Source of the DNA: Atractiella rhizophila | Taxonomy: Eukaryota | Direction: 5' to 3' | DNA length: 64,000 bases | NCBI GenBank assembly: GCA_021432655.1 | Contig: MU271246.1 | Span: forward strand, 1-64,000 | Shown here: positions 12,526 through 54,480 of the stretch, in pieces | Numbering within the stretch: position 1 is the first letter of the stretch | Layout of the letters: each line of letters opens with the position of its first letter | Made by a program: the position numbers and the translations under genes | The notes under the pieces: model-generated | What the model was told of the DNA's origin: nothing | The model's database searches: none | The model's input: the letters and a program-made list of their open reading frames with translations, nothing else

Positions 12526-12531
12526 TGGTTA

Positions 12532-19532: not shown

Positions 19533-22081
19533 TCAACGAACGGAATTTCTTTCCATCGACATGACTTCCATCTCGCTCCTCCTCCTCTTTGCTCCAGTAT
19601 AAGAAAAGCCAGGAAGAGTAAAATCCCATAGAAACAACCTCTCCTCGTCTGCTGAAGTCACCAATGTCCGACCATCACTCGTGAGCGCGGCTTGTGTAAC
19701 AGGGGCGTTATGGCCTTTCAGAAATGCCAATTCTTTCATCTGACTCGGACTGCTGTTCCATACACTGATACAGTCATGATTCTTCAGAGCGGAATCATGC
19801 GACATTCCATGCGTAGAAATAATCTCGTTCGTCGACCGCGGCGGTAGACAGGGTGCTTTTCGGAGCTGCAGGGTTTGTGAAAAAACGGCAGGCTAACTAC
19901 CTGGTTTTGCGGCCCAGAACTCGCGCTTCTGCTGCGTAAAAGCGATGGTAAAGCCTCCATCCCAGAAAGGCAAGCAGAAACCCAAGAACAAGCCAGCGTG
20001 CTGCCCTCCGTCCATCCAAAGACGAAGACGGACACTGCTCTTAAAACCTCTCCTTCGTCGCCTCTCCCCTACCCACTCCCTCCTCAAACCTAACCTCCGC
20101 CCACCGCCCTCTCCCCTCTCACCCTCCCATCCTCCCTGCCGCGACCCACCACAAGCCTGCTACTTCTCACACGGCAGCCCCTCCTACATCACAAACCGCC
20201 GACCCCTCCTCTCCTCTCCTAGCGCGCAATAAGCTCGCAAGCACCACACCTGACTTGCGGAACAATACACCGCGCTCTCCCATTTCTTCCTGTAAAACCA
20301 AGACTTCTTATTACCCATCCATACGATTGGTCAAACTGCTGGTTTCCCTTGAGAATGTCAACTTTTTGTGTCACGACTTTGACAGGGGGACACGTTTTAA
20401 TATAGGTGTGTTGAGCTCATCTATCGGACCTAAAGCGGGTGATTATGGGAGAAGACGGAGGAGGATCTGACAGTTCAACTAAGCAAAACGTCGAGTGAAC
20501 CGCCCACACAGGAAAAAGCGTACGACGCGAAGCCGATATGGTGAACAATAGAAGTGAAGGGTGTGAGTCGACAAGCAGTCTCCTCGAAACCGTATGATCA
20601 GATCACCGGGAACTCTGTGCAGCTTTCCAGCTATATGGTCGCTCGATCTATATTCATTCGTATTCAGTATTTAGTAAGCGCGTGCGCAAGACAACTGCAA
20701 CACGGTTTCGAGTTGTCTTCCCTTTCCCCGAAGTCAGCTAAAGCGAACTGTCGAACCGACGAGGTCGGTAGCGAGCCCGAGTGAATAGTGACGAGAGTAA
20801 TGTTTGAGTGAACCAAATTGGCGTATATACACTCGCAAATAAGTGCGTGAACAAGAACATGGTTCGACTGAACGATCTTTGGAAGCCTTTCTGCGCAGTT
20901 TCTCGTGTCGCTTTTGCTTGAGCTTGTACCTAAAGGGTCCTGGTAGGAGAGGGAGGTGGAGGTTAGAAAGAGAAAGGGAGAGAGAAAGGGCCAGAATAAG
21001 GGAGAGGCTTGTGAGTTCGTTGTTCGCTGCCGCAGAGTCGCTGGCTAAGTGAGGAGTTGCTTGTCCGTCAGGCTGGCTGTACAGGAAGAAGGGGAGGCTA
21101 AAGCAGAGAGGGAGGGAGTTCGCGAGAGTTTGCCTACGTGGGTGCCCACCTCTACGGTAGTCAGCGTACGAGCGGTTTAGAGACTCGCCTTTCCGGCTAT
21201 CAGCAGCCAACAAATCGATGCCTCGAAGTTCGTCGTTTTCTGGAAGAGCACACGAAGCTCTAGTGCTGTACGGATGGAGACTCTGCATGGTCGGTAGAGC
21301 TAGCTGCGCTCAGTTCCTCTCGTTTCTTGTCTGTAGCTCTTTAGAAGGGGTCTTTACAATGTTCACAGACCTGCGCGGCATAGAGGAAACGCTAAAGATA
21401 TAGAGCCAAGAGCTGACCAGTAGCCTGCTATCCTGTGAGCGACAGCGCGAAAGGTTGGCAGAAATGGAGACCCTTGTCTCGCCTTGCTGCCAGTTCGACA
21501 CGCTTAAGGGAAGCCTCCTCTAGTAGTGAAGGCAAGCGACCCACGGCTGCGAAAGTTCGAGGGTTTATCGTCAGCCTTGCTGGTCCCCCTTTTGAGTATA
21601 AATGCTACCTCCCTGCCCTCGTAACCATGCTTGAATAGTAGGTAGTTGGTAGTCACATAGTCTTAGCTAACGAAGCTACTCAACCTTTCTGCGGTAAGAG
21701 AGGTGGCGAAACTTTCGTCCCTGGTAAGAGGTAGCGCTGCAAGCTCTAGGAAGAAGTGTGTAGCGTTCCGAAGCTCCTGTGGCACCTTCGCAAACGCCAG
21801 AACGTACCTCGTCCCTACCTTTCGATCGCTCGCCTCCTCTCCTGCCTCAGCAGAAGCACACCCTACCTTACCTCCTCGCTGGCTGTTAGTTCAACCTGCG
21901 AGTAGGCCCACGTCGGCGATTCCGAGAGACAACCTCAGGAAAGGCGAGAAGATAGGAAGACTGACCACCGCCTAAAGTTCTGCCTAGGTAGTTAAAAACC
22001 TTGTGGAGAAAGCTTGGAAGATTTCGGGAGGAGAGCAGGTTAGGATGACCACGAGTTCAGACATTAAACAAAACCAGTGCC
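19533..22081 (-). CDS. CDC20/Fizzy-family APC/C activator, ~485 aa, intronless CDS. First 385 codons = plain COMPLEMENT of 20927-22081; last 101 codons = normal minus strand 19835-19533
   Basis: Complement reads MDFPG...SDRFTPQR (C-box-like)...CLDAPYLLCDFYISVLDWS...GHRGSVCGLAWS...GAQVCNLFWSR and joins in frame to STNEIISTHG...LKGHNAPV...LFLWDF...SVR*. Confidence 0.93.
19836..22081. other. Mirror-reversed (uncomplemented) segment 1, left of N-gap 22082-22100
   Basis: 19836-19861 read backwards equals 22101-22126 (cttttcgtgggacagatggcggcgcc); in-frame gene joins at both ends. Confidence 0.97.
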
Positions 22082-22244
22082 NNNNNNNNNNNNNNNNNNN
22101 CTTTTCGTGGGACAGATGGCGGCGCCGAGTACGAAGGAGGCGAAGGAGATGAGGGAGAATGAACGGTTGGAGAGGTGGGAGCAGATGGGGTGGAGGAGGA
22201 AGGTGGTTTGGGAAGAGAGGGCGAAGAGGAGGGCGGTTTGGTAG
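19836..22244 (+). CDS. MRPL20: Mitochondrial ribosomal protein mL58 (MRPL20). 5' part read backwards (uncomplemented) from ATG at 20294; 3' part normal at 22101-22244
   Basis: Reverse reading MSFFTLSRHITRRSVH...RDPL...LPDGTLFIVRTPPS...MRRLRAQDPAFWS continues into LFVGQMAAP...GWRRKVVWEERAKRRAVW*; two small indels in the mirrored part. Confidence 0.82.
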
Positions 22245-22927
22245 GAGTCTTATGTGCGCGCTTTTCTTTCGATTGGTTTGGAGAGAGGTGCGGCGGCGGA
22301 AAAGTATTACTGGTTTTGAGTAATTGCTGAACAAATCCTACTTGTTCCTGCAGTCGGTGCCGTGTTTTTAACTGGTTAGAGTTTAAACTATTCGATTCAT
22401 TCTGCCGAATCAATGAGGCGTTCATTTTGAGCTTCCATTGTAAAAAGTACCTCTACTTGACAGGTGAAAGCAAGTAGAAGATAAAGGGGACGAGGTGCGG
22501 CCAAGTTCTCAACTAGATAATATTTAGAATGCCTCAGTCCATTCTGCCAAAACAATATATCCTTCATTTTGTTTTGAACTTCCTTTAGGAAAGAGTGGCG
22601 GATGCAGAAACTATTAGACTGTTACGGTGACGAGGTGTGTCAGTTGTGCGTCACATTGTTATGCTGATGTTTTTGAGTTCGGCACTGAGTACAACAACCG
22701 GCCACGGTGAATCCCGACGCTGTCTCTCAGCCATTGGGAACTTCCAATCCAAGAATATGCTGATTGGACCTCGTATCATACTCATGCGCGACTATGGTGC
22801 TGATGTACGGTTTCCAGACATTAGATCTTCAGAGCTGATGGAGTAGACACCATAAATTTGCTACTAGGGGAGGTAGTGTAACGTTCACACAAGCTCTCGT
22901 GAATTTTATTTCAAACATCCACTCAAC

Positions 22928-23927
22928 TCATAGCCAATCCTTGGAACCGTGATGTGAAAGGAAATCGCCACTCTGTTCTCGAGTTAGATGATGAATGACG
23001 TCCAAACAAGCCTCTGCGCTTTCTTTTGGCGTGATGGCGCCTTTGAAACTAGGCTTGACCTTTCTGAACTCGCCAACAAGGTATGCATCCAGCGCCCTGT
23101 CCTGATCATTGCCTGATGTGGAAATGATGATTAGTCTGGACGAGGTGGATGGCAAGTCCAAGTGACTTACGTTCCCTAGTCAAAGTGTTCACGTATCCTG
23201 GTGACAATGACAAAAACTTGATTTCTGGGTAAGTGTAAGCCCATTTCGCTGTCAACATATTGATGGCAGCCTTCGAAATGGAGTATGGAGCTCCAGCCGG
23301 AAACCGTGCAGTTCGGGTAAACTCAAGGTCTCCCATACCTGTCGACTGTTGAGCTGTGAGATTAAGAGGAGTTGAAAGGGAAGAGAAACACACCATAGTG
23401 ACTACCTTGGGGTCGGATGATTTCAGCAGCAAAGGGAGGAAGGTAAATATCGTAATATTGGACTGGTCTATCGTCAATGTCCTGAAATGTATTGAAGCCA
23501 GGAGACTTACACCCAGCACGTTCACTTCCCAGTTTTCATTCATGTCTTTCAAAAACTGTTTTAGATTTCCGTCACCCTCCACGTACCCCCTCGGCGAATC
23601 GCCATGCATAACAGCAGCATTGTTAATGAGGACATCGATCTTTCTGGCCTTGGCTTCGACGTCTTTGACCACCTTTTCGAGCGTCGAAGCGTAAGACTCG
23701 GATTCCCCAATTTCCCCGATTTCGACAACGTGTACATTCGGCGCTGGCGTGTAGATGAGAGTGGATTTGCTTCTCACCAGAGCGAATATCGTGTTTGAAG
23801 ACTCGGCAGAGAGTTGTTGGACGATGGCTGCTCCCTATAACCCCCTCTATCAGGGAGACCATTTCTGTACATTTGGAGAAGTACCCACAATCCCGCGAGC
23901 TGCTCCTGTGATCACGTAGACAGACAT
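22928..23927 (-). CDS. Short-chain dehydrogenase/reductase, paralogue A
   Basis: MSVYVITGAARGIG, DVLINNA, PYSISKAA, SLSPGYV, FLSHHGSKDWL*. Confidence 0.93.
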
Positions 23928-25302
23928 GCTTCTAACTTCGGCAGTGTTGATGACCTGATTGTATACTTTTCCGATAATATTTGTCTCCGTATTGCCAGCA
24001 TTTTATATGGAGAGAGGCATTGGCGTTAGGAACAATTAGATGTCAGCTCCTGCTACCGCACTGCAGTATTATCGCGCCCGTATCCGTAATGCAGTTTGGT
24101 GATGCTTGCAAATCGATGTTGTCCACGGTCAGAGTATCTTAACACCGACCATCTAAAGGCTATCCCAGTCCGAAAATAAGCAGGAGGGTGGGGCATTGCA
24201 CAATCAACTCCGTTCAGATTCACTCTCAGTCTCAACAGGAGCCATCCGCGGATCCACTTTGTCGCCCCCTTCCCTGCACGATGAGTGGGTAGATGTGTCA
24301 GCGCCAGTAATATATTGTTTGGACAGTTTGGCAGATTGGCACAATCAGGAAAGCTTCAACCAGGTTTTGAAAGGGAGCGACGGAGACACAATTGATACAA
24401 TCTGAAGCTCTGGTTCTGAGTGAAATAAACCTGGTCTCGTTAACCCTTGTTTTGCTTCAAGTTGAAGGTATCTTGAAAAGCTATTAGAAAAGCTATTAAA
24501 AGCAATAGCAAGAGAGTTTATTCTTCTCAGCTTGGGTCAGCAATTTTCAAGCACTTCCATCCTACATGTTACTACATAGGTACTAAAAGAAGTGAATGGC
24601 AAAGTGGAAAGTGTGTTCTCTTCCGAGAAATGGGAGAGCCCATGTACCATTATTATAATTCGCGAGACTTCGTCTTATGCGAACAGAGTATTCTTCAGCT
24701 ATTCCACTGTGACGCGCCGCGATACTTCTGGATAGTGAACTTTCCTGCATACTGTTTGCCGAATGGAAAGTTCGATGGAACAGAGACGGGATCGCAGAAA
24801 TGATTGACACGCACTGGTATTAGTCGATAGCAAACTGAAGCACCCATGTCATTGTGTTCATCTCAGCACGCTCTGATTCGATCCAGCGGAAGAGAGTTGA
24901 GCTGGAATCCCCTTGGGCAAGAGGATGAGGGTCTGTCCGTCCTAAGGTGTTACATGCTCCTTCGCATCCACGCCAAGGCTCAAGGGTACTGTCACGCAAG
25001 AAACAACTGTCATACCCCCTTCCTGGCGACTTTTGGATCTGCGGGTGTAGTAGTTACATTGCTAAGTTGCTGTCTTAGAGTTTGGTCAAGGTAACGTCAC
25101 GACCGTCATTGATTTCATATATAAAGGGACTTTCATGCAAGCTTATGTTGCCTCAGGTTCATATCATATTGGTGCATGATACGGCATAGAAATACGCTTT
25201 CCTTGACAATGTAATGAAGCAGAGTTCATGGGGCATTTTACTGGACAGTTAGTATTGTTGACACAGTGCGATGCTTTCATTTCATTCTAATATCCGTTCA
25301 GC

Positions 25303-26316
25303 TCATAGCCAATCCTTGGAGCCGTGATGAGAAAGAAAATCGCCACTTTGTTCTCGGGTTAAGTGATGAATAACGTCCAAACAAGCCTCCGCACTCTCTT
25401 TCGTCGTGATGAGACCGTTGAAAGTGGGTTTCACCTTTCTGAACTCGCCGACAAGGTATGCATCGATAGCCTTCTCCTGATCATTTCCTGGAGAAGAAAG
25501 GCTTGATCAGCTTGTAGGAAAGGACAAAGTCCAAGCACTTACGCTCTCGGGTCAAACTGTCCACATATCCAGGGGACAGGGACAAAAACTTGATTTCCGG
25601 GTAGGCATAAGCCCATTTGGCCGTCAACATGTTCGTGGCAGCCTTCGAAATGGAGTACGGAGCGGTGGCCGCGAAACGTGCTGCTCGTGTGAACTCGAGG
25701 TCTGCTAGACCAGTCGACTATTGACAATATTGAGGTGTGAGGTGAGGTAGCGGTGAAATGGAACGAAACCTTACAAGTGTTACCGCCTTGGGATCAGACG
25801 ACTTCAGGAGCAAAGGTAGGAAGGCGAATATGGTAATGTTTGCCTGACCTATTGTCAGCGCCGGCGCCCCCGACATTGAGATTCCTGAAACTTACACCTA
25901 GCACGTTCACCTCCCAGTTCTCATTCATGTCCTTTAAAAACTGTTTTAGCTTCCCGTCTCCCTCCACGTACCCCCTCGGCGAATCGCCATGCATAACACC
26001 AGCATTGTTAATGAGGACATCGACCTTGTTGGCTTTGGTTTCGACGTCTTTGACCACCTTTTCGAGCGTCGAAGCGTAAGACTCAGAATCTCCAATCTCC
26101 CCGATTTCGACAACGTGTACATTTGATGCAGGTGTGTAGATGAGAGTAGACTTGCTTCGCACTAAGGCGAATATCGTGTTCGAAGACTCGGCGGAGAGTT
26201 GTTGAACCATGGCTGCTCCCTATTCACCAAACAACTTCCGTCAGAGAGTCATTTTCTACGTCTGCAGAAGTACGCACAATCCCACGAGCTGCTCCTGTAA
26301 TCACGTAGACAGACAT
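25303..26316 (-). CDS. Short-chain dehydrogenase/reductase, paralogue B (tandem duplicate of A)
   Basis: Same exon layout and motifs as A (INNAG, YSISKAA, SHHGSKDWL*); upstream sequence also similar. Confidence 0.93.
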
Positions 26317-27526
26317 GTTTCCGACTTGTGTAGTGCTGATGAATGAATTAATGTAAGTTTTCTGGATGAGGCTTTCCCTTCCATGTTACCAGCACTTTTA
26401 TATGGAGGGAGGCATTGGCGTTAGGAACAATTCGATGTAAGCTCGTTGTAAGTTCCTGCCACTGCACTGCGGTACGATCGCGCCCGCATCCCGTAATGGA
26501 GTTTGGTGCCAGTACGCGATGTTTGCAAGCGAACCCATCTTGCGAGACGGCGGCTTACGTGCCAAGTTCCCGCAAATCGATGATGACCACAGACAGGTCG
26601 ACGGTCAGAAATGCCTTAACACCGACCAGCCTTTCAACAGGATGGAGCGATAATCACTCTCCTCAAGAATAGGAGCCGTCCGCGGATCCATTCCCTCGCT
26701 CCGTACTCAATGTCTGTGGATGTATCATATGCGTCAGCATGGTCCATCCCAGTATTACATCTAATTAGCACATTTTGGAGTCTTTTAGAGAGCTTCAATT
26801 ATTTTCAAAGTATGAAATGGAGCGATTGTACTCGGACCTACCAATCAGGCTCCGAGTTAAACATCGTTAACCGGTGTTTTACTACGTACTTCAAGTTGAT
26901 GGCACATTGCAAAATGAAACGAAGCAGACACACAAGTCACATTCTTATCAGCTACCTAAAGAAGTGAACAACGAATCGGAAGTCAAGCGACTCCTCCTCC
27001 AAAGAAAGAAGAAAGGCTGGAAGAAACAGAAGCAGGCTACCTTCCCTCGTTCGGCTTCCTCTTATGCGAGCAAAAGGATTCTTCAGGTCATTTGTCTCTC
27101 TTTTTCACGCTTCTGTGCTGTTGCAACTGCACGATTTTTCATGCTGACGGGGAATAATCCTTACTTGATACCTTGAGCACTAGAAGCAGGCGGCTAGGCA
27201 GCAAAGAGCGACATGCTCTGATTCACCATTTAATAAAGACTGATGGACTTCTGTCGAGTTCGAGTACAATAGGAAATACGGAGGACGCACAATCTCATCA
27301 TGGTACCACCTCAGCTCTCCTCTGCTTTGCTTTCATCACAACAACAGTTCTTGATCTGGTATCACGTGACCTACGCGTCAACTCCAACGTCCGCTTTCGA
27401 ATCTTCGCCTATTCTACTAGCGAATCGATCATCCACAGTATCTGCTGCAACTCACAGCCTCTAACGAATACTATCTCCATATCCAACAGACCATTGCGCC
27501 GAACAAACAGTATCATCCGTATTCAA

Positions 27527-31656: not shown

Positions 31657-34297
31657 CAGGAATGAGTGGTCGATGAGCGCTGTGTTGGGATTATGGAAGA
31701 CATGGAAGACTGTATAAATCTGTGCGGAACGAGTTTAGTACGGAATGATCATGATCATCAGTGTCGTTGGAAGTTGTTGAGCTCAAGCTTTACTCAATGA
31801 TCTTTCCACACAAAGTCCAAACACTGACAAATACAAACATCCAAAGGCGTGTGCTGAAAGACGCCAGTTGAAACAATTGTGATTTGCCCCTTCAGAACTT
31901 GGAATATCCACCGCCCTCCCGAAACACGCGGCTTGAAATGGCCAAATCCCCCACACCACCAGAACTCTCCCCATCTCCACCTCCAGTTCCAACCTCCACG
32001 ACTGCCGCCGCGCATAAAGACCTCGAGCGGAACACTGAAATATTGCTTCATCTTGCATTAGAGCTAGGTATAGCTGTTACGGATGCACAGAGCGTAGGGG
32101 GCACGGGAAAAGAAGTGGGAGTGCGAATGTATGTTCTCCGTTTCGCAGTGATGGGGATTGGATGATCAATCTTTCGTCCAATGCAAGAGCGACAGGTTAT
32201 GCTTCCCCAGCGTTGAGATTTGACATTTTCTTTCCAAAAGTCTTGCAATGTAGAGTTTCAACAATCAAAGTCTCCCTCAGCGCAATTTGTAGCCATCCAG
32301 TTTCGATTTGGGTAGAAAGACCCCCGTCGACAGATATCGATGAAGTAGAATTGCCTGCCTGCCGAGCTATCTGAGCTTTCCATTGCAAATTACAAGCACT
32401 CTTGGCCTTCTCGCAAGGAAAAGTCTATATGTTTAGGCTTCACACAGTACAACATTGTTTCTATTCAACACCACTTTATTCTCAAGCTTGAGTAGCTATG
32501 AGATATTGTTTCCGCATGATTGAGAAAGTGCGCACCCTCCTCATCAAGTCATGCAACTAGGTTATTTCATATTGACGCACTGTTCATTGGCATTGTTGTG
32601 CACATATAATTTCCTATTTCGATCGCTTTCTCCAAAATGTAGCCATGCCTTAACTTGTCCTTCGCGCGCAGAAACTCCATGATGTCCCAAATGCGAAAAA
32701 TTCGCGACATCTCCCTTCATCCAGGACTACGAGAGGTTCGCGTGCCAAGAGAAGTATTGGGGTAGGTCCTCTCTCATGTTGTGGATGAGGTTTGTAAATC
32801 GTGCTTCAAGGCATGTGGATGCGGTCAAGAACCCTCACATATTCACTAAGGAGATCATCGAAAGAGCGGTGAACGAAAACCAATATGCGAATGCCATGAT
32901 GAAGAGTGTCGCTGTATGTCGTTCCTTCTATCTATGTCTGTAAACATCAGTCATACTCAGTGATCATTATTCAGGACTATCAAAATATCCTCGTATCGCT
33001 CATGGAAAAGAACTTCCCTGATGCGCTCAGACCTCTTCCGAACATGGAAAATGGGCTCAATCCCTCCATCCATAAGGAAGAAAAGGATGTACAGATGAAG
33101 ATAGAAGGTTGAAGCGTTGAAGCGGAAAAGACACTAGTGCCTGTTTGACAGCCACACCCATTATGTACTTTGAACAACAATAATTCAAGACCGAGCAATC
33201 TACGCCTTTATCCATCGAACCTCCGACGTGGACTGATTTGTGTTGTATACGACGCTTTTGATCCACGACACACCTTTCGCGTTTTCATTGCTTCAGATGT
33301 GTCCTCATAGTGCCGCCCAAGAGGAGCACTCTGGAGCATTGTGGTTTGGCAAGGAGAATGTCATCCAGGCTTGTGGTTGCTGTTTAAAGCGCCTCCTGAG
33401 TGTATATTATTGGAGGTGCAATTAGGAGAACCATGTTTCCTGTCCTGACGTGAAATCAAAGAGTATGCATCAGTATACCTGCAGGGGATGTCCAAGCTCA
33501 ACTTTCTCGCATCCGCGATGCCCGTCGATGACAAAGCTGAGGTAAACCTTTATTAGCGACAACTAAAATCCTCAAGGATGTTACACTCTAGCTCCGTCAA
33601 GCTGACGAAGCCACTATCGAATGATTCGGAAAAAAAGGGATTACTGTTCTTGACAAGGATGTACGCACGAGGTAGACATCACTGTCCTGAACCTTGTTTT
33701 CGTATCCATAACAAATCTTCCTAACATCTCAAGCTTCAGCCTGCAAACACACACTGTACCTCCTGGGGTTGAAGTGCATGAAGTCCTGACCAACAGTCTC
33801 CCACTGTTAACTCACCTCAATGCTCCATGTGGCTAGCTGGCGAGCCCGTTACAGCTGCAAAATCACGGTAGAATCCTTCTCAGAGCCATGCTCGCATTCT
33901 CAAGGTAACGCTCCACATGCTTATTGTCTCCCTCGTCATCGCGGCGTTAATCATTTCGATTCGTTCTTTCTCTCAATTGAATCTTGAAGGAAGAGGCGGG
34001 AAGAATCCCTGAAGCATAAGCTGCCCAATAAGCACTAGATAAACATTGTTTCATGATTCTTTCTCCTTCTGCTCCTTCAATCAACATCTTACCCCGATCG
34101 GAACAAGCAGGAAGAATGTAAAGGAGGATCTTTCGGTAAGCATTGTCGGACATGGAAGCAGGCTGAGTGGAGCACACATTCTGCTCAATGCTCGATAGAA
34201 GAGGACCAAGTGACGCCAGATATATAAAAACCAAGTGATATAAATCCTCTTTTCAGTAGTTTTGAAATTTACATCACAGTCACCTGCAAACCCAAAC

Positions 34298-35300: not shown

Positions 35301-35604
35301 AGTTTTTTGAAACTGATCCAAATTGATTGACATTGAATGAACGTCTCGCATTGCACTGATAACGGACCGGAGGTAGACCTGAACGAGCTACCAAAGCTCA
35401 GGGCACTCCTGTCGAAGGAGAATAGGCAGTAGCCGTGAGCATGATAGTCAAGAATTGCAGCATCTGGGCCGCTTTCAAGTTGACAGATTCCCCATTCACC
35501 TCTCAGCAAAGCAAAGTCCTTTCTTTTGCACTGGAATACATTCAAGAAAATTTCCATACGAGGAGATCCGAACTGAATAAAGCGAGTATTACTGATGACA
35601 CTCC

Positions 35605-40028: not shown

Positions 40029-40552
40029 CTACCAAGCAATCAAACAAGTGAGATGAGATAACCGTAAGTGGAGAGGAGAGGACAGAGCGGACCTTGAAAC
40101 TTGAAAGCAAAAATCGACGCAAATTCGTCGTTATATAGGATGATAGAGTCCAGAATTGAGTAAGAAGGATGAATGAAATCTTTTCTGGTGGACCTTCGAC
40201 ATTTTTATCCGGATTCTGCAGCAGAACCTGTACAAGCTGATTGCGATTGTTGGCTGTTTTCGGACACTGATTGTCGCGTCGACATGTGCCCAAAGCGGAC
40301 ACGAACTTTTGTCCTGGGTTCATGACGCTTTTGGACCTGAGAACACAGGTCGAATCCCCGGAAAAAACTCGGCCCCTTCTTTCCCTTCTTCTGCTCCTTC
40401 GCTTGGCAGGTGATGTGAGGACGTGATTTGTGGGGGTTCTTACGAGAAAGAGCTCGGACGGAGCGAAGTCAACCTGTCTTTCACGTCACAGTCGTGGATA
40501 TCGCGGCCGCAGATGCACTGGCGAAGGAAAGTGTCAGCTATCTTTGGTTCAT

Positions 40553-40750
40553 CACCGTAGAAAGCTTTTCGGAAGGTGGCCTGCTGCTAAAATCAGCAGG
40601 CGACCTTCCGGTTACGAGCATGTTACCTGCTGAAACTCCATCAGGCGACCTGATTGCGACGATTTGTCCAATCATCAGGTCGCCTGCTGCCAGCCATCAG
40701 CTATATTGCAAGAACCTGATGGCTGGTGGCAGGGGACCTGCGCGTACCTG
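40553..40750. repeat. Left TIR plus subterminal palindromic CAGG-N3-CCTG repeats and hairpins
   Basis: cggaaggtggcctgctg/cagcaggcgaccttccg; caggcgacctgat/atcaggtcgcctg; ccagccatcag/ctgatggctgg; caggggacctg. Confidence 0.85.
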
Positions 40751-42166: not shown

Positions 42167-43083
42167 ATGTCGCCTCAAATGTTCCCACCAACGAGCACCA
42201 ACGTCTATTTTGATGCAGTGGAAGTACAAAACATCCTAGAGATAATTAGAGAGCGAGCCAGTTGTGAAGGGGCGGCGGCGGTAGCCATTTTGGAGGAGTG
42301 GGATGCGGTTCACGGAGCAGGGGAGTTCAAACCGCTGGAGGCGGTGGCAGAGGTACGAATCACCTTCATTCGCTTTGAGAAGATAGTGACCTGCGGAAAA
42401 GGTACACGCGAAGGCTGGGGCACTCCTTGCTTCATCAAGGTGCCTTTCACCATGCTCCCGTTACGCGACTTTTCCAACCTTCGGCGAGGTCAGCAAGCAT
42501 CAGAGCCTGAGCTACAAGGGGATGAGTTTGTGCTATACGTGGTGAGGCTTATTGCACTTGTTGTGTGACCTTGATGCTGAGCCCGTTGTTTGCAGAACAA
42601 GACACCGAGGAAGAGTCGACCAAAACGCTTCGAGCTGACTGCCTTTGGGAAAGCAAATACTCAGGTCAGCTTTCCCTTATTCGAATTTGCGTCCTCACGC
42701 TTCACGCGCACAGTCTCGTCTCAAGAAACCCTCGCGCCATCGCCGGTCCATGCGTTGGCAAGACATTCGAAAGCTCCCGGATGGTCTCGTCATCACCAAC
42801 CAGGCATGTTTTCCTTTGCTCCTTCATCCAACCTTTTCATGCAACTTATGTTTCATTTGATAGCGCGGACACGAGGCGCCGAAAGTAATTGCTGAAATGT
42901 CCTTCAAAGAGTATCATCGATTCTTGAATGCTGGCCAACCGTTCGAGACGGAGAGCGAAAGCTCTGATGCACAGGAGGAAGCTACAGGAAGCTCGCGCAA
43001 CCGTGTCAAGGGTGAATAAAATAGCATGGAATTGAATTCATATTACTATTTACTTCCCTGTAGGAGCCAATAAGTCAACTTAA
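42167..43083 (+). CDS. Transposon-borne hypothetical protein (5 exons, one GC-AG intron)
   Basis: Splices to an open frame: MSPQMFPP...FVLYV|NKTPRKSRPKRFELTAFGKANTQ|SRLKKPSRHRRSMRW...TNQ|RGHEAPK...VK|GANKST*. Confidence 0.65.
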
Positions 43084-43109
43084 GTGCTACAATCTCACGG
43101 TGGCCATGA

Positions 43110-46100
43110 TTAATGAGGAAGTTCAGCATCCATAGTCGCAAGAGCATTGAGGATGGCCGCCATTGTCCGCTCCAGGTTCATAAGAAGGGTGCTCTATCTT
43201 CTCATGAACAATGGAAATGGCAGTGAGAATTGCGTACCCGCATCTTGACATTCGTGCGGACCTTTCCTCCCAGCTGATGAATCAAAGCACGAAGGCCATC
43301 ATCCGACAAGGTGTCTGCCTGGAATCCGGACTGGAAGCAGGGCAATGTAAGGAGAGTCGGAGAGGGACGGGCGAGCGTTTCCTTAATCTGCAATTGAACT
43401 GCTTTCGATTCTCGGTGCTTTCTAACACCTTCATGGACAAGCACTTTGCGGTCAAGTCGAGGGATCGGTGGAAGGAATCTCTCAACCATTTCGCTATTTC
43501 AGACGGTATAGGCATTCAAAATGTAATAATGTTTGTTTGGGTCTGCTGTTCGATGCTGAATCGCACGCCTCCGCTGTTCAGTCATCTTCCGTTCTTGACG
43601 TAGCAGTTCAAATCCATCGTCGACGCACCCTGCTATCTGGCAGGCATGCTGAATATTGACAATCCCTTTGATTTTGTCCTTTAAGCAGATTTAGTACCTT
43701 TTAAACCGAGATATATACTTGGAGCAATGACTTACTACTGAATCGAGTCGCGATAATTGCGGAGAGGGTAGTAAGAGAGGAAGCTGATGGTGCTTGTACC
43801 AAGCTCCTGTGAAGCTCATTTGACAGCCATATATGTGGAGTTCTTGATTATTCTGCCCGGCACGATAGTCGACCGGCTGCAGAAGAAGCATTTGGTCGAC
43901 GCGAAAGATGTACGGATACTGAGATAGCGAATGTAAGCAAGGAACCCGAGACGAGAGGAGTTGAAGAGAGAGACAACGTACACGTTCCTCCGGCTCTACC
44001 AGGATAAACGTTCCGGTGCGCACCTCCTCTTCAGAGTGAGCAATAACTGAACGGACTTGAAGATGGTTGAAATCGCGAAAGCTGTTACCATCCGATGATA
44101 GAGGAATTGAGGGCTGCAGCTTATGAAAAATGGTGTCCATTGCAGCTTCGAGACGTCTTGTGGTTTATATGGACAGCGAAGACGGGTTTATAAGCTAAAA
44201 GTTTCGACAGACTGACGTATGCTGTAGTTTTCTCAGTCGCCGTAGCGCTAGACTTTCGTTGTAGAAACCTATGAGGATAACTCGTTCTTGGTCACAAGTT
44301 CCTTGTCGAAGGGAGTGTAATACCTTCAGAAACGAAAGGAGCAGCCCGCCTTCAGTCGAAACTTGTCTTTCCACTTAGAGACGGACTATAATAGGTAGTT
44401 TCGTGTCACCCTTAACTCCCGCTGCAACTCTACAAGTAGAGACTCTTGTAGAGTTCTGTACATCTCCTTCTCCAACTTCTCCTCCTCCTCCTAAATGAAG
44501 ACTCTCATCGTTACTTCCTCATACTCGCGCGTGTTTCGTATAAGACCTCTGAAGTCTACTGCTCAAACTAAAGGCAGTGAGTCTATTGCTTTCACTACCT
44601 CCCCTCAGTAATAGTCGACCTCTCCTACTTCCATGTAATCAACTACAAAAGCAAAGCTACGGTAGCGACTGTTACCCGAAAATAATCTATTTACAAGACC
44701 CGGGTTCGAAGGTGTTAACTGACACTACCTCCTGAGTTTCCTCACCAAAGGCATAAGCTTATTCGTCCAGACAGGACGATAACAATATAAGACGAGTCGC
44801 TAACTACAGACTGGTACTTTCGTCGTACGAGACAGACTGGATGAGGAGTTAGAGGAAGCTGTGTTTTAGGGTCTTAGAGAAGCGTTCGAGGAGACCTTCG
44901 AATATGGCCTTAAACCAAGACTCGTACGTTGCAACTTTCGCCGAAACGGGAGTTTCCTTGCCGAATTCCCCAAACGTTTTCTTCTACCTCCTAAACCCAC
45001 AACCTCGCGCCTGAGTACTTATAACACCAGTGTCCCCGTTAAAACAGATACACTTGTTGGGAGTTATGGTACTATCGCCTCCACACAGATAGTTACGAAA
45101 ATGAAAGATCAACACGTGATGAGTAAGTTTATTGGTCCGGTAACGTTTTGGGAGAGTAGTCTTTTGTAGAGTGGAAAGACGGTCTTCTGTGACCGCTATG
45201 GCAAGTTCTCGACATAGTCCCGCTATTCACCTTCTCCCTTTAGTTACGCGCGGAGGATTGCGGAAGGTAACAACAGTTTCCTGTCGAGATGAAATGACTG
45301 CTCCAAGACTTCGATTTCCTACCAAGAATGAAGGAACAGAGGGCGACCAAACATTTCCGGCCACACCACGTACCGTCACCAATGTTACAGAACACCAGAC
45401 TACACGACTCTCCGAAATAATAGCTGATGTCTCCGTACACAAGGCAAAGATACCTAGTCGACTACTACTTGCCAGGCTGCGTCCTCCTCCTTCTAGGCCT
45501 AAGGTTAAAGTAGTTTCCATACTACAGGGGACCACGAGTGTAACCTTCTTGGCGAGTGGTAAAAGTATCCACAGAGTTGACGTCTTCCGAACTAGGTGGG
45601 GGTTCTTCGGACCTTCGGCTAGAGTTTGGAAGCGCGAGTCACATTTCCTGCTGCTCAACACTGCCAAGGTCATCAGGACATACGACTACTATGCAGGCCT
45701 TTGGCAAGTTTCTTCACCTTGTTCGTGGTCTCGAAAGAGCGCTGAGATCGTCCATATATGAAGACGAGGAAATACAATTTACGACTACGTAGTCGTGAGT
45801 TAGATCCGGAAGGCTTGTTTGAGGTCGTCGTTCTCAAGACACAAGTTAAAGAGCCTTGGTGGTTACAGCCAAGCCAAGAACTTGAAAACCTCCCACACAC
45901 AGTCGGTCTAAAACATTCATGACATGTCGTTAGTTCTACACTTTTTGGATTAAGGTCAGTACGTCCCTACGTACCTTTCTCGGACATCACCGGAAGCTGA
46001 CAGAATGTCCTCTTCTCTAGTATAAGTCCGGGGAAGGAGAGGAGAAGCTTCCGCTATTAGGGTACGTCAGGCTTAAGACGAGCTAACGTCCAGATCGCAG

Positions 46101-47440
46101 TGACTTCAAGACGGCGCGCAGACATTTCAACCCCGACTTAGTTTCCGTCTCCTCGTCTGACTTCTTGTATATGTGGTCAAAGAATTTCACGCGCGTTCAA
46201 CCCCCCGACTCAGACAGCAAACTTGTGAGTTGCTACCGTATCACACCGCTTGGCGCTTCTGGGGATCTCTGTGAGCGTAGGGAAGCGGCGAGACAACGGT
46301 AACGTCGACTAGACTGTAATGGGTTTCCAGTTTAGCTACGACTTGCTTGGAGGAGGCCGCAGTTCCTATTGCAATGTTGTAAGAAGCACCTCGTTAACAA
46401 CGTCGACGCGTTCCTGAAGGTACCTAGTTTACTCCGCGAAGTTCGGCTTTATTGCTTCTGTAATCTTCTCATAGTAAGCTCTGTCAAGGTCGTGTTGGGA
46501 CGTAAAGTCGAAAACCCAAATCTAAAACTAAAGGTAGCACTGTGGGGAAAGCTTCAGAACGTGCCTTAAGACGAACCTAAACAGTTCATGAAAACCGCGC
46601 TATTGTAGTTCACCGAGAGAGGAAGGGTTTCCCGTAACCATGATGCTTTTGACCTGAGAGAACTCCAAAGACCTGACTTGTGCCTTGCCTAGGGTCCGAG
46701 AGTTGAACAGCTAATACGGGTGTCGGACCACCCGTTTCTAAAATTTAACTAATACGTTCAACGCGACAAACGTGAGCTGCCTCACGACCTTTTGCTCGAA
46801 CACAGCTAAACCCAACGAGAACCCGCAGACCCAAGCGACCATACCGCGGGGTTTCAGTGAAGCTTCCTCTGAATATAACAAACAGAAACTCATAAAGGTT
46901 CGTGGTCGACTACTCGTTCCTGAGGTCTTGCTGAACCTTCGTCGTTAGCGAAAGAAGGACCTGAGTTGACGTTCGGACTGCTGTGTTTACCAAGTTGTTT
47001 GCTTTCAAAGTAGAGGAGCAAGTAGAACGTCTGTTGCAGGCAGCTAAGCCTCACGGATAGTTGATACGGTGGCTTTTTAAGCTTTCGATGTTGCCACATC
47101 ACGTAGACGCGAGTTAAAAGAGATTGGTAGTTCGAGGGCCTCAGCTGTAACGTCGGAGGAAAAGTCCGATGCTGGCTCATGCGGTGTAAAAGTCGCCGCC
47201 CAAGACCTTCCTGTTCCGGTGACCAGTTACCCAAACACGCAGGAGCTTACAAGAGTCGGAATACGCGCTGTTCAGGATAAGAGTCTACGATCCTGAATGT
47301 GAGGGCGTAAGCACCAGACTTAGAGTAAGCTATTGGTTGGCAAGTGGTCCAAACAGAAGAGACTAAGTCACTGGAAAGACTGTAACTGTTGGGCAGTCCA
47401 TGAACCCTCGAACTCTCAGTCTCGTTGTACGTGAATGGTC
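43110..47440 (-). CDS. DDE transposase, CMC(EnSpm/Mirage/Chapaev)-like fungal family. 44143-47440 must be read as plain complement; premature TGA at 43499-43501; start probably in gap 47441-47465
   Basis: Complement gives CRFC..HQKSQRH zinc finger, EWFPY, NPLIRKHLTFLPED, LYADDTSGNRSKKWNKH, GDNPMQSEFCS..FCR.C, GVKD, DTPFEVLHGILLGFVKYFW, KFHLLVHL..RRFG..TEKFESYN; joins in frame to normal-strand AMDTIFHKL... and IQHAC..QER..YILN. Confidence 0.9.
44143..47440. other. Mirror-reversed segment 2, left of 25-N gap
   Basis: Complement strand shows GT-AG introns and transposase motifs; in-frame join at 44142 (MHLP-A-MDTIF). Confidence 0.96.
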
Positions 47441-47602
47441 NNNNNNNNNNNNNNNNNNNNNNNNNCCTCTTTCAGTGTCTCTCAATATATTGCTTTTAGC
47501 GCTGATTTTCAAGTTCTGAAGTTATCGTATTCAAACTGTGGTTCTAAGGTATGCAATTCCTCGTTAGTGGTGTTTGTCTCGATCATTAACAAACTGAAGC
47601 AG

Positions 47603-49003
47603 ATGGCTCAGTTCAATGACTACAACTCGCTGCTCAGTGGTCTGAATGTCTCTGGCACAGGCTTCAATACCGCAAACAGCACCCCGGTGATCAACACCCC
47701 CTCCAACGACCCATTTGCCGTCCGTCGCCAGGAACTTCGCGACAACTCTGACAATGGAACTGAAGAGCTCACCCATCGCGCTCCTGCTAGTGGGTATGGT
47801 ACCTTTGGGAACCCAGCCTACAGGAGGTCGGGACGTCAGCATCAGCATGGTAGAATTCAACGCTGTGATCGAGGGGATCGTCAGTACTCGGCCATTACTC
47901 AAGCCACAGGATATCCCTGCGTTGTTGCGTTTTGGCGTAGTAAGTATTTCTTCAGCGTCATTGTCTGTAAGAACATAATGTGAGGTGCATCCCAGGCACC
48001 TGAGGTTGTTCAGAGGGTTGAAACTGAAGGCGGATCTTTTGGTCCTCACTCGACAAGTGGAAGCGCACGACCTGAAAACTGATCAAGCAATGGTCAGTCA
48101 GTAAGGATCTGAAGGTAAGATGTCCACTCTACTTCGTGCAGATACACACTCTGACATACTTCCCAGGAGTTCCTCCGTCAGCTGGTTGCGGAACTCCTCC
48201 GCACACCAGATGTCTATGCTTACAAGGTCAAGTTTGGTGACCGGGCGAAAGTGAGTCGTCATCGCTCTCTTAATGATGTCTCCTCCTTAGATTGGTTTGA
48301 AAGATGCCATCTTTCAAACCAAACTCATGATTGCTTTTCACTTTTACTATCGGATCTGACAACGTGTTGCGGGGTTGGGGATAACAGAGGTACATCGAAA
48401 AGGCTGAACGCGAGGCTGGAACGAAGTATTTCACCGCTGCTTGGGAAGAAGGCTCTATCATGCAGAAGAAAGTGATGAAGGTCATTGAATATGAGGCGGG
48501 TCAAGAACGCTCCGCGATCAAGGAAATTGTGGGCGTTTTCGTTCTGGTTTAGCAGGCAAGGCTGATACGCCAGTATATAGATCGAAAAATCGATCCAAGA
48601 AGGGTGGGATATCATTAAGCTCGCAGTTGCGGTCGTGAATGGCTACAACATCCGCCCCAGTGCAGAACTGCAAATCCGTCTTGCTTACATTGTAAGTATG
48701 GTTTCTCCATTTGATATGTATATGCTGATTTGTTGGATAAGCGGTCTTTACGTGCCGGCCAACACGGTGACTTCACAACTAGGAATTTCTGGAATCAGGT
48801 CGATGCAAAGATGGCAGATGTGCGTAAGAGTTTGACAGCCACGACGTGTGTATAGTTCTTTGGCTTTCATCTACCTGTTTATACTTACAAGATGTGCTAG
48901 GTTCTATTCAGAATGCTTAGCTTGGGACCAGGGCAAGTGGCCGGTTCAGCAAAGCTCAAGAGACTCCCTTCGAGATGTCGAGACTCTGGCTACCGGCGTC
49001 TGA
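47603..49003 (+). CDS. Transposon accessory protein (multi-exon), divergent from the transposase
   Basis: MAQFNDYNS...; FLRQLVAELLRTPDVYAYK; ELQIRLAYI|RSLR..NFWNQVDAKMADVRK..FYSECLAWDQGKW..ATGV*. Confidence 0.7.
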
Positions 49004-49593
49004 GCATGAGCCTATATAGGTAACGTCTTTTCCCGTTTCGTTCTGCAAATGTCTCTCTCATTGATATATAGGGCAGCACGCTTCAAGTTCCTCAGTGGCC
49101 GATCCACGCCGTGCTCTTTCTCAGCTACTTCAAAGTGATGCGGATGCATCTGCCCTCTCGTATACCGGTAGACAAAAGTCTGGCCATTATGCAATATAAC
49201 ATACATTTCTATTTATTAATTTCTGGCAAGGAATCTGGGAGAATGCAAGCGCAACAAAAAACAGAAAGTGGAACCGGGACTACAAGTTGTGTCGGACGCA
49301 CTTGCTGGCGAGCTGGTTAGCGTGTTGCCACCAACTGGCCTCACCATCAATCTTTTGATCCTGTCTGTCTGTCGCTCAGTCAGCTTCCGGAGGCACGTTC
49401 GAGCGAGATGGGTGGAATTCAAAATTTTGTGCTACAGCATCAAACATTTGGTTGGACTGAGGATGAAATTCCAAATGTCGGCGTTGGGTCCTGCTGGCGA
49501 AGTGCTGGGGAGCTCATTTCGGTAACTCGACCACGAGCAAAAAACGTCCCAAATCCACATCCCCAGAACGTGGGTTTCAGTTTGGCGTGTAAG

Positions 49594-49666
49594 CAGGGAA
49601 CCTGACGGCAAAATAGAGTTCCTGCGTGTAGCCATCAGGTCACCTGCCGAAAGAATTTCCACGGTG
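49594..49666. repeat. Right subterminal repeats and TIR
   Basis: cagggaacctg (49594), caggtcacctg (49636), ends ...tttccacggtg. Confidence 0.85.
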
Positions 49667-50056
49667 TTCATCCCCATCCCCTGTCATCCCCATCTCCAAT
49701 CCGTAACTCCTCTTCTCGTGACTCCCGTACCGCCAGGGCCGTGGGGCATGCATACTGTGGACAGAGAGAGTAGTGATGTTAGGTCACATCCCTCCTGCAA
49801 ATAGTAGCAAACGAAGCACAAACATAACATCTGCTGCTTCTATCATAGCTGTCCATGCAGCGAGGCGTTTCCTAACTATACTAAAAGTTCTCATTTCCTA
49901 ATTCCTAAATACACAGTACAGTACTACCAGCAAACCATCCAGAGTCCGTTCGAACCAAGAACTTGACACATCGACGTCAAGGGTCGTTAAAGGGTACTAG
50001 AACGTTAAAAGCAAATCTGACAATTGTTCGTTGCACAAAAAAAGGATTGAAGCACG

Positions 50057-51327
50057 TTAGGTTCCGAAGACCACTCCCAAGACGATGGCGAGAACGACGA
50101 TTATCAAAACGAAACACCCGAAGAGATACCACCTAAGCTTGCGCGCGTTTCGAGCGCTCTTGACCGCTTCCCGCATGTTTTTCAGCCTAGTACAAGCAAA
50201 GTTCGTACGGTATCAACCATAAGTAAAAGCAATAGGAGAGGACATACGCAAAGCCCATATCTCTAGTCGTATCGTCCACCTTCTCATTAATGCGCTCTAT
50301 TTTCTCATCGTCTTGTTCAACCATGATTGAGAGCTGCATAAGAGCGTAAGGACAGTCCTCACTGAGATGGAGAAACCGAACAGACCTCATTGACGAGTTG
50401 GGCAAGTTGGGTCATTGTCTGTTCGATCTTCTTTATTTCGTCCCTCCTTTCTTGGACATCCTGGTAAGCACTCCTCGCATCCGAATATCGATTCGAGTTC
50501 AAAAGCTTCCACGCTGTCATTGGCTTGTGAGCGGATGACGCACAGAAGTGCTCACAGCTTGAGAAAATATCTGGTCTCCCCTGCCGTCCTCGATCGCACT
50601 TCGCACTTCCTCGTCCGTCTGCCCTTCATCAGCCTTCCTCTCACGGAGACCGATTTCAGACCCACCGCCTCAGGTTTCACAATCTTATACTGTCTCTCCA
50701 TCCGCTCCCTCAGTTTGTCCCTATTCTTCTTCTCTTCCTTCTGATATTCCTCAATGACTCCCTTGAACCTGTTCTTAAGGGCAGCCGCCTGTTGAAGCCG
50801 GACTTTCTTATCATCCCCTGCTGGCAGACGCGCGATAGACTTCTCCAAACGAGTGAGATGGCTCTTGATATTGCTCAATGAACGAGAAGCCTCCTCTTGA
50901 AGTCGTTGAACGCTTTTTGTGGCGGATGGATCACGATCTGGAGAAGACAGTGCTTGTTCTTGGGCGGAGGACAGTTGTTGGATCGTGCCACTGAGGGAGG
51001 TGAGCTGGTCTTGAATTACTGAGAACTGGGAATGAATCTCGTTAGAGGATATTCAGAAATTGACGAGCTATTAGCATTTCAAAGCTTTTGGTAGCTTTGA
51101 AAAGGAGCGGAGTGAGAACTTGTAACGCACCTCATGATTAAAATCGTTCCCTCCTTCTCCAGCTTCCAGGCTACGAGGCTGATCAGAGCCATTTGTCGTT
51201 GGAGCCTTCAAGTTTCCTGCAAGTGAATCCTGGTTCTTCGAAAGCATCCCAGCCATCTCAGTGCTACCATAGTCTGGATATGGTCGAAGGGACGAACCTG
51301 AAACGCAGCCAGTCTATCTCTCGACAT
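50057..51327 (-). CDS. Plasma-membrane syntaxin (Sso1/Sso2-like t-SNARE)
   Basis: MSRDRLAAFQ start; RMERQYKIVKPEA; SNARE motif KIEQTMTQLAQLVNE..IMVEQDDEKI; ARNARKLRW plus C-terminal TM helix. Confidence 0.93.
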
Positions 51328-51330
51328 TTT

Positions 51331-52539
51331 CCCTCTTTCTCTCCTGACACTGGCAATCACCTCCTAAGCTACTAATAGGTCTCGGGAAACGCTTCGACCG
51401 TGGAGAGAACATTCCTCTTCCTCTCACGAGCCTTTATTTAGGCGACGTCGCTGGTCGGACTTCCCGTTGACCGTGTATTTATTATATAGAGTAGCGCTCA
51501 ACATAGCGACGAGGTAAAGTCCGATGCGCTCAAGTTGCTACAACCGTCTTCGGTCGTTCAGTGGTGTGTTCCGGAATACGAGTGTGGTGTATTCTTTATG
51601 ATGAAATTGGCTAAGATTGGGTAATGACTCCGTACTAAAGCGTGTCTAGCCAGTTTAGGTAAGGGTGCGGAGGTGGGTGTGGGAGTGGGATGTGTAGGGA
51701 GGGTGGGAAGGCGAGGGGTGGGAGACCAGGGAGAGGTGGCGGGAGGAGTCGTGTGAGAGGGGGGAGGAGGGAGGAGGAGGAGGAGGGGGTGAGGTGTTGG
51801 CGGATGGAGGCGTGGAGGGGGAGGAGGGGAGGGTAGGGTTTTTTGGAGTGGAGCGGGGGGCGTGGTGGGGAGGTTGGGGGTTGCGACAACTGGCCGCGTG
51901 GTCGCCGCGAATACCGGGAACGCTTACGCGTGCCCCAGCTCACATGCCGCCACACACACGTCTCCCCCTCACGACACGGCGGACCCTACCACCTAATACC
52001 TGAGAGCCGCCTCCCACCTCTCCCCCTCCACCTCCCCACCTTCCGCCACTTCCAATCCTTCCTATTCCCCTCCTTCCTGTCCCCCCTAAGACCTTACATA
52101 TAAACTCTCTACCACCTACCTTACCGACGACCCTTAACACAACACTCAACAACACATCCTAAGTTCAAACACTACTTTGCTTTACACAGGCTTTACAGTA
52201 ATACCTCAAAAAGGGCCTCAATGTCGTCCTGTCGAACGCTGAACGTAGGTTGTTGACGTAGCAGTTATCGTCACCGGTCGCGAGCTTGATTTGTTAGAAT
52301 CGATTAGGGTAGTCGTTCAGTTCACACGGTTAACGAAAGTGCACAAACTCAAAGATGTGTTCTACCTTAGGATTGAAGCTAAACTCACCTTCATAGACGT
52401 CTAGACTTGAGGCAGTAATGGTAGTTATGGCAAGTACTGGTTACATTTCGAAGGGCAAGTCAAACAAAAGCAGCAAGCGCCGAATGAGCCCGGGGCTCGA
52501 AAGCATGCTAGTAACCGCATGTTTCCTGATACTCTCCGC
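51331..52539. other. Mirror-reversed segment 3, left of 246-N gap (left boundary uncertain, ~51331-51361)
   Basis: Complement contains a ctaac...cacag splice acceptor and a coding exon ending GMYI*. Confidence 0.85.
51647..52106 (-). CDS. Terminal exon of a probable proteasome assembly chaperone PAC1/Pba1-like protein (read as plain complement; one indel)
   Basis: IGQIHSH...PPLQPPTLLTGAPAALMALANAHGVECTAV...DSGMYI*; C-terminal HbYX-type motif MYI. Confidence 0.6.
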
Positions 52540-52785
52540 NNNNNNNNNNNNNNNNNNNNNNNNNNNNNNNNNNNNNNNNNNNNNNNNNNNNNNNNNNNNN
52601 NNNNNNNNNNNNNNNNNNNNNNNNNNNNNNNNNNNNNNNNNNNNNNNNNNNNNNNNNNNNNNNNNNNNNNNNNNNNNNNNNNNNNNNNNNNNNNNNNNNN
52701 NNNNNNNNNNNNNNNNNNNNNNNNNNNNNNNNNNNNNNNNNNNNNNNNNNNNNNNNNNNNNNNNNNNNNNNNNNNNNNNNNNNNN

Positions 52786-54480
52786 ATTTCTACGAATGAA
52801 CTGCTAGGGTGGTGCTTACTTGAACTCTAGAAAGCAGTGATGTATACTTCCTGCAGTCGGGCACACAGGTGTCTGTCCTGGTTCAAGATATACATGGCTT
52901 CATGATTCGGAGACGTAGTGATCAAAGTCTTTGAAGCAGCTATGTATCTGGCGATAGTATCTCTGGTCGCCCACGCTAAGAGAAAAGAACAGTAGAAAGT
53001 CGTTGTTTTTCTTGCGAGGTCGTTAGTACGATTTAATCCTTCTGTTTCTCGAGAGTTTGGAGTGTTTGCTTTGCTCTCCTGATATATCTTGGACGTGATT
53101 TGTGTGGTGTGGGTTTTGCTGGACGGAATAGCTTCTGCTTCCGTGTATGTCAAGTGTGGAAATTAACGCCACTGTTTTGCATACTAGCACCTATTTCCTC
53201 TTCGAACCCTTGACGTTTTTCCCTACGTAAACTTCTTCTACGGCTCTCTACAGAGGGGAAGCAGGTAGGTCGTTGTAGAATCGGTGGAAAGAGAGGGAGG
53301 TTCCGGCATCTTAGCTGTAGTGTAGGCGCCTCGCGCGTTATAAGTCCCTCGGTGCAGAGAGAGATATATATTGCTGGTACCCTCTTCACGCCTCTCTTGT
53401 ACCTCTTGGCTGAAATTAGTTCCATCGTCTCTACGACTTCACTGTCCTCAAGCCCTATGCTTTGAGACCTGGCTGAAAAGCGCAAGTTGGATTTCGAAAC
53501 GCGAGCTGTGGGACCTCAAGAGGTAGAGGTGGAGAAATTCCATTCTACTGCGTTCCTAACCTCAAAATTTTCCATCGGAGGAAAGAGGGAAGTTCGGGTC
53601 GTCGCCTAATGACATTTGTGCTGTCAAAAGAAGGGTGTATATTCCTTTCTGTTTTCTTGGGGACCTTACAACTTTGAAAACCTCTTTCTTGTGAGTGCTG
53701 AGGTGGACTCCTGGAGGTGGTAGGAAGGGTTGAGTAGGAGCGAGAGAGGTTAGTATCGCTTATATAGTCCAGATAGCTCCATTGTGGTCATGAGGTTCAA
53801 AGGGGTGGCCGAGCTCCTCCAAGCTGCCGTCTGAGTTAGACTGTCGCCGCTCTAGATAGTCGTCAGTGTTCAAGTAGGGCGCGTTTTTTTCGTAGGTTTG
53901 CATGGAAACTGCGGGTTGTAGAAGAAGTCATAGGGGTTGTCGACAAACTGGGACGAGGGAAGCGAGACGTGGAGGGGTAGTGCCTGCCTCTGGTACAGAC
54001 GCCGCAGGCCTACCTACTGCTGGCGGAGGGGCAAGAGCAGAAGCATGCTGAGAGGGTCACGCCACCCGCACTCTCTCTCGCACACGACCCACACCCTCTG
54101 AACTCACCTGACCCTCCCCGCCTCCCTCTGAACCTCCCCAGACTCGGTCCTGTACCACAAAATAAAGATCGGATCTGACCTTCCACTGAGAACTCTCCTC
54201 CCTCTCCACTATTCCTCTATCATTCCACCTTTCTCCGTCTTCTTTCTCAACCCTACCTTTGTTTCTTTCTTTGCAACCAACTAACCAACTGACCCAACTA
54301 CGTTCTACGTTCGCCTTGCACAAGGCTTGAGGCGGTTAGCATTGAAGCAAGGAAAAGTGCTCGACGTAAGCCTGGAAAACAAATAAATGCATTGCGCAGG
54401 GGAGTGAACGCGCAGTTAAGTAGGTAGAAATGCGCAGGCAAGAAGGAGAGTATTTTGAGTGTTAGCATAGAAGAGTCCAA
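52786..54480. other. Mirror-reversed segment 4, right of 246-N gap
   Basis: Read backwards gives OSBP exons 1-3; terminal donor gtaagcatcttta joins normal-strand ...gctcac...ccag acceptor at ~54509. Confidence 0.96.

Follow-up and report, generated by a model that had tools for sequence, protein, structure and literature searches.

The window analysed here comprises the first 64,000 nt of one contig, C67, in a fungal assembly of 51.5 Mb and 1,998 contigs. It has three N-runs, and next to these lie a CDC20-like gene, an MRPL20-like gene (a weak assignment), a Plavaka-like transposase gene, a PAC1-like proteasome assembly chaperone gene and an oxysterol-binding-protein (OSBP)-like gene. All five are ordinary genes, the PAC1-like and OSBP-like ones apparently with housekeeping roles, and all are partly hidden by four blocks, S1 to S4, that are written in reverse order in the file and are not complemented (Table 1). 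Long protein-like frames are seen in these blocks in a complement-only or reverse-only reading. An earlier note, made from the letters of the window, had described four gap-adjacent segments of this kind, and the description is borne out by polarity scores, by copies of S2 to S4 that match in reverse only and by a sequence overlap at S1. The limits given there for S1 and S2 are exact; however the start of S3 is not at ~51331 and the end of S4 is not at ~54480, and the combined length is 8,288 bp as measured, not ~8.4 kb. The assembly carries two haplotypes, with contig C243 running parallel to window positions 30237-64000 at ~95-98% identity. Full-length matches to natural DNA are obtained for S2, S3 and S4, after reversal only; S1 is connected only by an overlap of 26 nt and by homology at the protein level. 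The four blocks are confirmed as an assembly artefact: they are natural sequence present backwards in the file, and the organism does not have them in that form.

Table 1. Features at and around the reversed blocks of the window
Feature	Positions	Strand	Basis
CDC20/Fizzy-family WD40 gene, C-terminal 78 codons, normal orientation	19602-19835	-	PF24807 positions 233-292, E 1.3e-9
S1, 2,246 bp, reversed in place; rest of CDC20-like gene and 5' part of probable MRPL20-like gene	19836-22081		Polarity score -50, tblastx, join
19-N gap, closed after turning S1 round	22082-22100		26-base overlap
Probable MRPL20 (mL58)-like gene, C-terminal piece, normal orientation	22101-22244	+	PF12824 positions 120-164, E 0.74 only
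S2, 3,298 bp, reversed in place; Plavaka-like transposase core inside DNA transposon	44143-47440		99.485% to C3 when reversed
25-N gap; C3 copy has ~670 bp here	47441-47465		L011 positions 4359 to 3688 absent from window
Right flank, correct orientation, with single-base insertions	47466-48100		Run contigs, C3 comparison
Syntaxin gene, 5' part, and upstream region, normal orientation	50552-51485	-	PF00804 E 1.7e-12; 97% to C243 up to 51485
S3, 1,054 bp, reversed in place; 3' two-thirds of PAC1-like proteasome assembly chaperone gene	51486-52539		C243, P0151
246-N gap; C243 has ~367 bp here, including start of PAC1-like gene	52540-52785		C243 alignment
S4, 1,690 bp, reversed in place; 5' exons and ~830-nt intron of OSBP-like gene	52786-54475		C243 copies, P0153, splicing
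OSBP-like gene, remainder, normal orientation, with false tandem duplication 54937-55988	54476-56545	+	P0153, spliced contigs

Markov models trained on normal sequence were used to score forward against reversed text per kb. Held-out normal blocks are positive in 8/8 cases (+15 to +24 per kb), and S1 to S4 are all negative. An order-5 model, for which other contigs served as training data, gives summed scores of -50 for S1, -117 for S2, -32 for S3 and -21 for S4; the background for this model, 949 gap-distant windows of 500 bp, has a mean of +12.4 and an sd of 5.8, with 1.7% of the windows below zero. Markov segmentation ran S3 and S4 together, with 51359 as the start of S3, and was overridden by the alignment to C243. 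A count of splice-donor hexamers proved to be a poor test of polarity. Reversed text is favoured in normal DNA (152 vs 196), and within the blocks the deposited text comes out ahead (34 vs 21); the count thus flips in the direction opposite to its design and was set aside.

Reversed S1 aligns with a CDC20-family paralog on contig C182 in a tblastx search (E 2.6e-33), and S1 as deposited gives no match. The paralog passes the PF24807 cut-off in a six-frame family search. The CDC20-like frame of reversed S1 enters the visible tail in frame at 19835, without a stop and at a position equivalent to that in the paralog. Similarity of the hidden part to the paralog, together with the profile match of the tail, points to membership of the CDC20/Fizzy family of APC/C activators. 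Besides the window gene, which would be a third and more divergent paralog, the same genome has two that align to the hidden part. No second copy of S1 was found, and none of 212 metagenome candidates was confirmed to have the natural junction. The visible tail had no match among 25 candidates in a protein search, and of 150 generic long WD40-repeat proteins 28 match reversed S1, weakly; the genome's own paralogs therefore served as the comparison.

The other end of S1 closes the 19-N gap. Bases 19861-19836, read in reverse, are identical to bases 22101-22126 at 26 of 26 positions, and this is the only off-diagonal exact match of at least 16 bases of such kind in the window. The far end of reversed S1 carries a short frameshifted gene that runs on into 22101-22244, which we take to be MRPL20 (mL58)-like. 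This name is tentative, the 47 visible residues giving a weak profile match (Table 1). No full MRPL20 match is present in the six frames of the genome, and a PDB search gave no match. The sole MRPL20 match in the genome, on contig C751, has no DNA or tblastx similarity to the window.

S2 has a nearly identical copy on contig C3. The left flank of S2 is 99.6% identical to this copy, and the match of reversed S2, over its whole length, begins where the left-flank match ends; the frame of the C3 copy is uninterrupted through the position of the junction. In its deposited form S2 has no match in the genome other than itself, and diverged copies on four other contigs (C70, C1095, C131 and C25) match only the reversed form. 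Reversed S2 differs from the C3 copy by one mismatch and by 10 indel events, which total 16 bases, all of them extra in the window. Examined by eye, five of the events are in homopolymers, four in di- or trinucleotide units and one elsewhere, and the homopolymer indels attributed to the segments in the earlier note are thus about half of the picture. The S2 profile is indel-dominated, as for a long-read extension, and the comparisons of S3 and S4 are mixed with haplotype differences. Insertions are also present across the 25-N gap. The sequence at 47466-49016 has five extra bases relative to C3, and the right-flank bases at 47573, 47804, 48021 and 48075 are omitted in two to four of the sequencing runs described below. 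The stretch 47466-48100 is probably a long-read extension that was placed in correct orientation; the left side of this gap is reversed and the right side, with the same single-base insertions, is not.

The transposase resembles Plavaka transposases (PF18759) by atlas features of the C3 copy (0.96-0.97), and several copies with 67-78% identity are found in the genome. However the family is annotated on 29-30% of the cluster members, i.e., under half, and eight single frames of the C3 copy, searched against Pfam, gave no direct match (8/8) except a weak zinc finger.

Alignment with C243 fixes the order of S3, S4 and their flanks. On C243 the flank 49666-51485 as deposited is followed by 52539 to 51486 reversed, ~367 bp, 54475 to 52788 reversed, and the flank from 54478. 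Reversed S3 is 91.3% identical to C243 over 1,059 columns, and this alignment abuts the flank match. A join for this segment, which could not be demonstrated from the letters of the window, is therefore now shown. As deposited, the stretch 51331-51485 reads naturally and matches C243 as well as syntaxin paralogs at three loci; a slightly negative score for polarity (-6) explains why the earlier note placed it in S3. P0151, the annotated protein of the C243 allele, matches only the reversed window text (E 5e-54). No Pfam match was found in P0151, but it resembles PAC1/PSMG1 proteasome assembly chaperones (PF16094) in its features (likeness to PAC1 clusters 0.91) and in its predicted model (TM 0.61-0.62).

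Reversed S4 matches two C243 copies, at 93.5% and 97.6%, and the second match abuts position 54476 directly. The protein P0153, which has the PF01237 domain, is colinear over residues 1-492 with S4 and its flank: residues 1-136 match only the reversed S4 text (E 9e-19), and residues 146-492 match the flank as deposited. PF01237 is found in 7/8 OSBP homologues, which align with reversed S4 at their N-terminus and with the normal flank over the remainder. By this colinear homology the gene is assigned to the oxysterol-binding proteins. Contigs from two sequencing runs, X3 and X4, show GT-AG joints and splice from the end of reversed S4 into a micro-exon of 15 nt (54510-54524) and to 54572. Their loose end at 54572 consists of the last S4 exon bases plus the micro-exon, and thus a 47-nt intron spans the corrected junction. 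Transcription and splicing of the OSBP-like gene follow the corrected order.

Biological inversions, including template-switch inversions, are reverse-complemented and remain readable in six frames. They likewise place a reversed block between normal flanks, but S1 to S4 are unreadable in six frames. Since BLAST covers both strands, an inversion would match as deposited, and matches are found for the reversed text only; an inversion is refuted by the 3.3-kb match of S2, 99.5% identical once reversed. The general prior that inversions are common, and the fact that one claimed stretch (51331-51485) proved normal, are the points that speak for ordinary inversions or for misread, chance-looking open frames, and this explanation has a negligible probability.

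Four of the 24 listed sequencing runs (X1-X4), the other 20 having small shares, were compared, as assembled contigs, over 42000-56500, the region of S2 to S4. They represent at most three samples, X1 and X2 being from one sample that is possibly the source of the assembly. Depth is zero in 4/4 runs in six bins at 44420-47323 and in four bins at 52164-54099, and in X1 and X2 the neighbouring bins have depths of ~85-525. At 51680-52163 three of the runs have zero depth, and X1 has a depth of 15 where a repeat is flagged. It should be noted that a hole in contig depth is no proof by itself, and the holes in X3 and X4 taken alone are discounted, as these runs also miss normal bins. The contigs, from DNA as well as from spliced RNA, also have loose ends that continue into the reversed reading. 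The loose end of X2 at 44143 agrees with the 30 bases that follow in reversed S2, and may derive from the transposon copy on C3. A loose end of X1 at 51464 fits neither reading and derives from syntaxin paralogs on contigs C864 and C529. Apart from one low-complexity match, the deposited form of S2 to S4 is absent from the run contigs. Contiguous mapping of the sequence as deposited, which would have contradicted the earlier note, did not occur.

The same data bear on the idea that the blocks are real mirror-written DNA, copied in the cell in parallel orientation. The run contigs have the normal form and not the deposited one, every block adjoins an assembly gap, and the OSBP-like gene is expressed in its corrected order. 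No support for such DNA was found, no polymerase is known to copy DNA in parallel orientation, and the idea can in practice be set aside.

Reversed blocks recur elsewhere in the assembly. A polarity scan, in which reversed blocks under ~500 bp are missed, was applied to 14 hand-picked 40-kb blocks from contigs C5 to C300 (542,244 called bases, 10 gaps), and three reversed blocks were called, amounting to 10,932 bp or 2.0% of the bases and always lying against a gap. In all 22 blocks examined there are eight reversed calls, one of which merges S3 and S4, and 8/8 are within 7 bp of an N-run. The reversed blocks are 1.0-5.3 kb in length; seven lie to the left of their gap and two to the right. 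A reversed side is found at 8/19 gaps, and at four of the six gaps that are exactly 25 N long. The other 11 gaps have no called reversed side, and thus the trigger appears to be conditional.

S1 to S4 are almost certainly real genomic sequence that assembly software entered into the scaffold in reverse order. A long-read gap-filling or extension bug, as the earlier note proposed, is well supported as the cause by the gap adjacency, the insertion-type errors and the recurrence elsewhere, and we infer it on these grounds. The starting point would be a short-read scaffold with gaps. Error-prone long reads would then be assembled locally, extending each contig end into the gap, and a local consensus that lies on the opposite strand would be complemented but not reversed. 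The extension would be pasted between the contig end and the remaining Ns, and the end meant for the contig would touch the gap. Reversing a plus-strand consensus without complementing it would give the same text, and the two routes are equivalent at the level of sequence. The complement-without-reverse route, with a trigger that would depend on strand, is the simpler one because only some extensions are affected.

The gap filler PBJelly extends flanks into gaps that it cannot close and counts runs of at least 25 Ns as gaps (PMC3504050), and its fills were 88-96% identical in a benchmark (PMC8848313). Flank extensions or 'overfilled' gaps of the PBJelly type likewise consist of noisy consensus beside a residual N-run and are less accurate than the flanks; however the passages concerned describe overfilling and low identity, and not the reversed, uncomplemented text found here (PMC3504050, PMC8848313). 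The gaps of exactly 25 N (6/19) match the PBJelly threshold and would at most hint, indirectly, at its use in this assembly. A literature search, with most subscription papers and software trackers outside its scope, found no published account of a reversed-uncomplemented fault in a gap filler.

The artefact could instead come from another step, i.e., a custom script for merging, patching or format conversion, or the handling of this record after assembly. The sequence cannot tell which program was at work, and the lack of literature reports of such a gap-filler bug fits this alternative. It is nevertheless unlikely, as the adjacency to gaps in every call, the block lengths, the insertion-type errors and the error-rich but correct flank at the same gap all indicate contig-end extension with noisy reads. 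Within gap filling by long reads, we suggest, tentatively and with some doubt, that a widely used program has a general bug in its handling of orientation, one that has gone unreported.

If the bug is general, many public hybrid assemblies would have 1-2% of mirror-written sequence, in which genes are hidden or cut short and from which gene losses are wrongly concluded; the affected assemblies could be detected and repaired with a simple scan for polarity. Claims of gene loss that are based on comparisons with similarly made assemblies would need checking if these have the same bug. If the sampled blocks are typical, ~1 Mb of the 51 Mb in the present assembly would be unreadable in six frames, and findings adjacent to gaps need a polarity check first. 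No new biology is involved, and the relevance is one of data quality. Conserved genes appear truncated or lost, e.g., MRPL20 and the CDC20-like domain, of which the six-frame family search detects only the tail at 19602-19835, the last fifth.

The oxysterol-binding-protein-like (OSBP-like) gene, the 5′ part of which lies in the reversed block S4 and the remainder at 54476-56545 (+), contains a head-to-tail duplication of part of its own sequence. On contig C243, the second haplotype of this region, the same sequence is present only once. An RNA contig passes over the duplication by a jump from 55155 to 55748, and DNA depth is low across it. The duplication probably represents two haplotypes joined at a closed gap, i.e., a second type of artefact. 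A similar head-to-tail duplication, closer to the start of the window, is likely a false-duplication artefact of the same kind.

The OSBP-like gene also has an intron of ~830 nt inside S4 (~52850-53690), while nearby introns are only 46-62 nt; this long intron is also found in C243. In the place of window 56112-56533, contig C243 carries an additional, incomplete copy of the OSBP 5′ region (G000:C243:49552-51166); this reflects either a rearrangement specific to one haplotype or a gap that was filled incorrectly.

Further blocks written back to front without complementing are found on the contig of the window (C67) and on three other contigs of the assembly. The block on C67 is a repeat array with units of ~120 bp, and it matches its own left flank only in the reversed reading. 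The gap end of the block on C33, when turned round, is identical to C33:99766-100000 (100% over 235 bp).

Features of the window and of other parts of the assembly (G000)
Feature	Location	Size and sequence features	Context
Duplication, head-to-tail	54937-55462 / 55464-55988	526 bp, 95.6%, 1-base spacer	inside OSBP-like gene
Duplication, head-to-tail	11336-12530 / 12532-13728	1,197 bp, 95.7%, 1-base spacer	
Reversed block	G000:C67:86114-89208		right of 25-N gap, same contig as window
Reversed block	G000:C33:87721-92993		gap-adjacent
Reversed block	G000:C190:553-4081		gap-adjacent
Reversed block	G000:C190:16408-18537		gap-adjacent
Reversed block	G000:C131:75503-76788		gap-adjacent
DNA transposon	40553-49666	at least 9.1 kb	imperfect terminal inverted repeats, target duplication
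SUN-domain (Sad1/UNC) gene	16482-18441	PF07738, E 3e-9	

The terminal inverted repeats of the DNA transposon are 31 bp long and begin with CAC, with 25 of the 31 positions alike when counted by eye, and the 5-bp target duplication is at 40548-40552 and 49667-49671. The transposon carries the Plavaka-like transposase together with other spliced genes. The C243 haplotype lacks this element, a partial copy (99.6%) is present on contig C3, and contigs from the sequencing runs display loose ends at 49667-49668.

The syntaxin gene (49666-51485) has at least three paralog loci, on contigs C220, C864 and C529 (76-78%), and their similarity to it reaches into the upstream region. This number of paralogs is an expansion unusual for a SNARE. 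Three related genes with 65-79% DNA identity, which we take to be short-chain-dehydrogenase-like, are found within 22910-26508 and 34228-35066.
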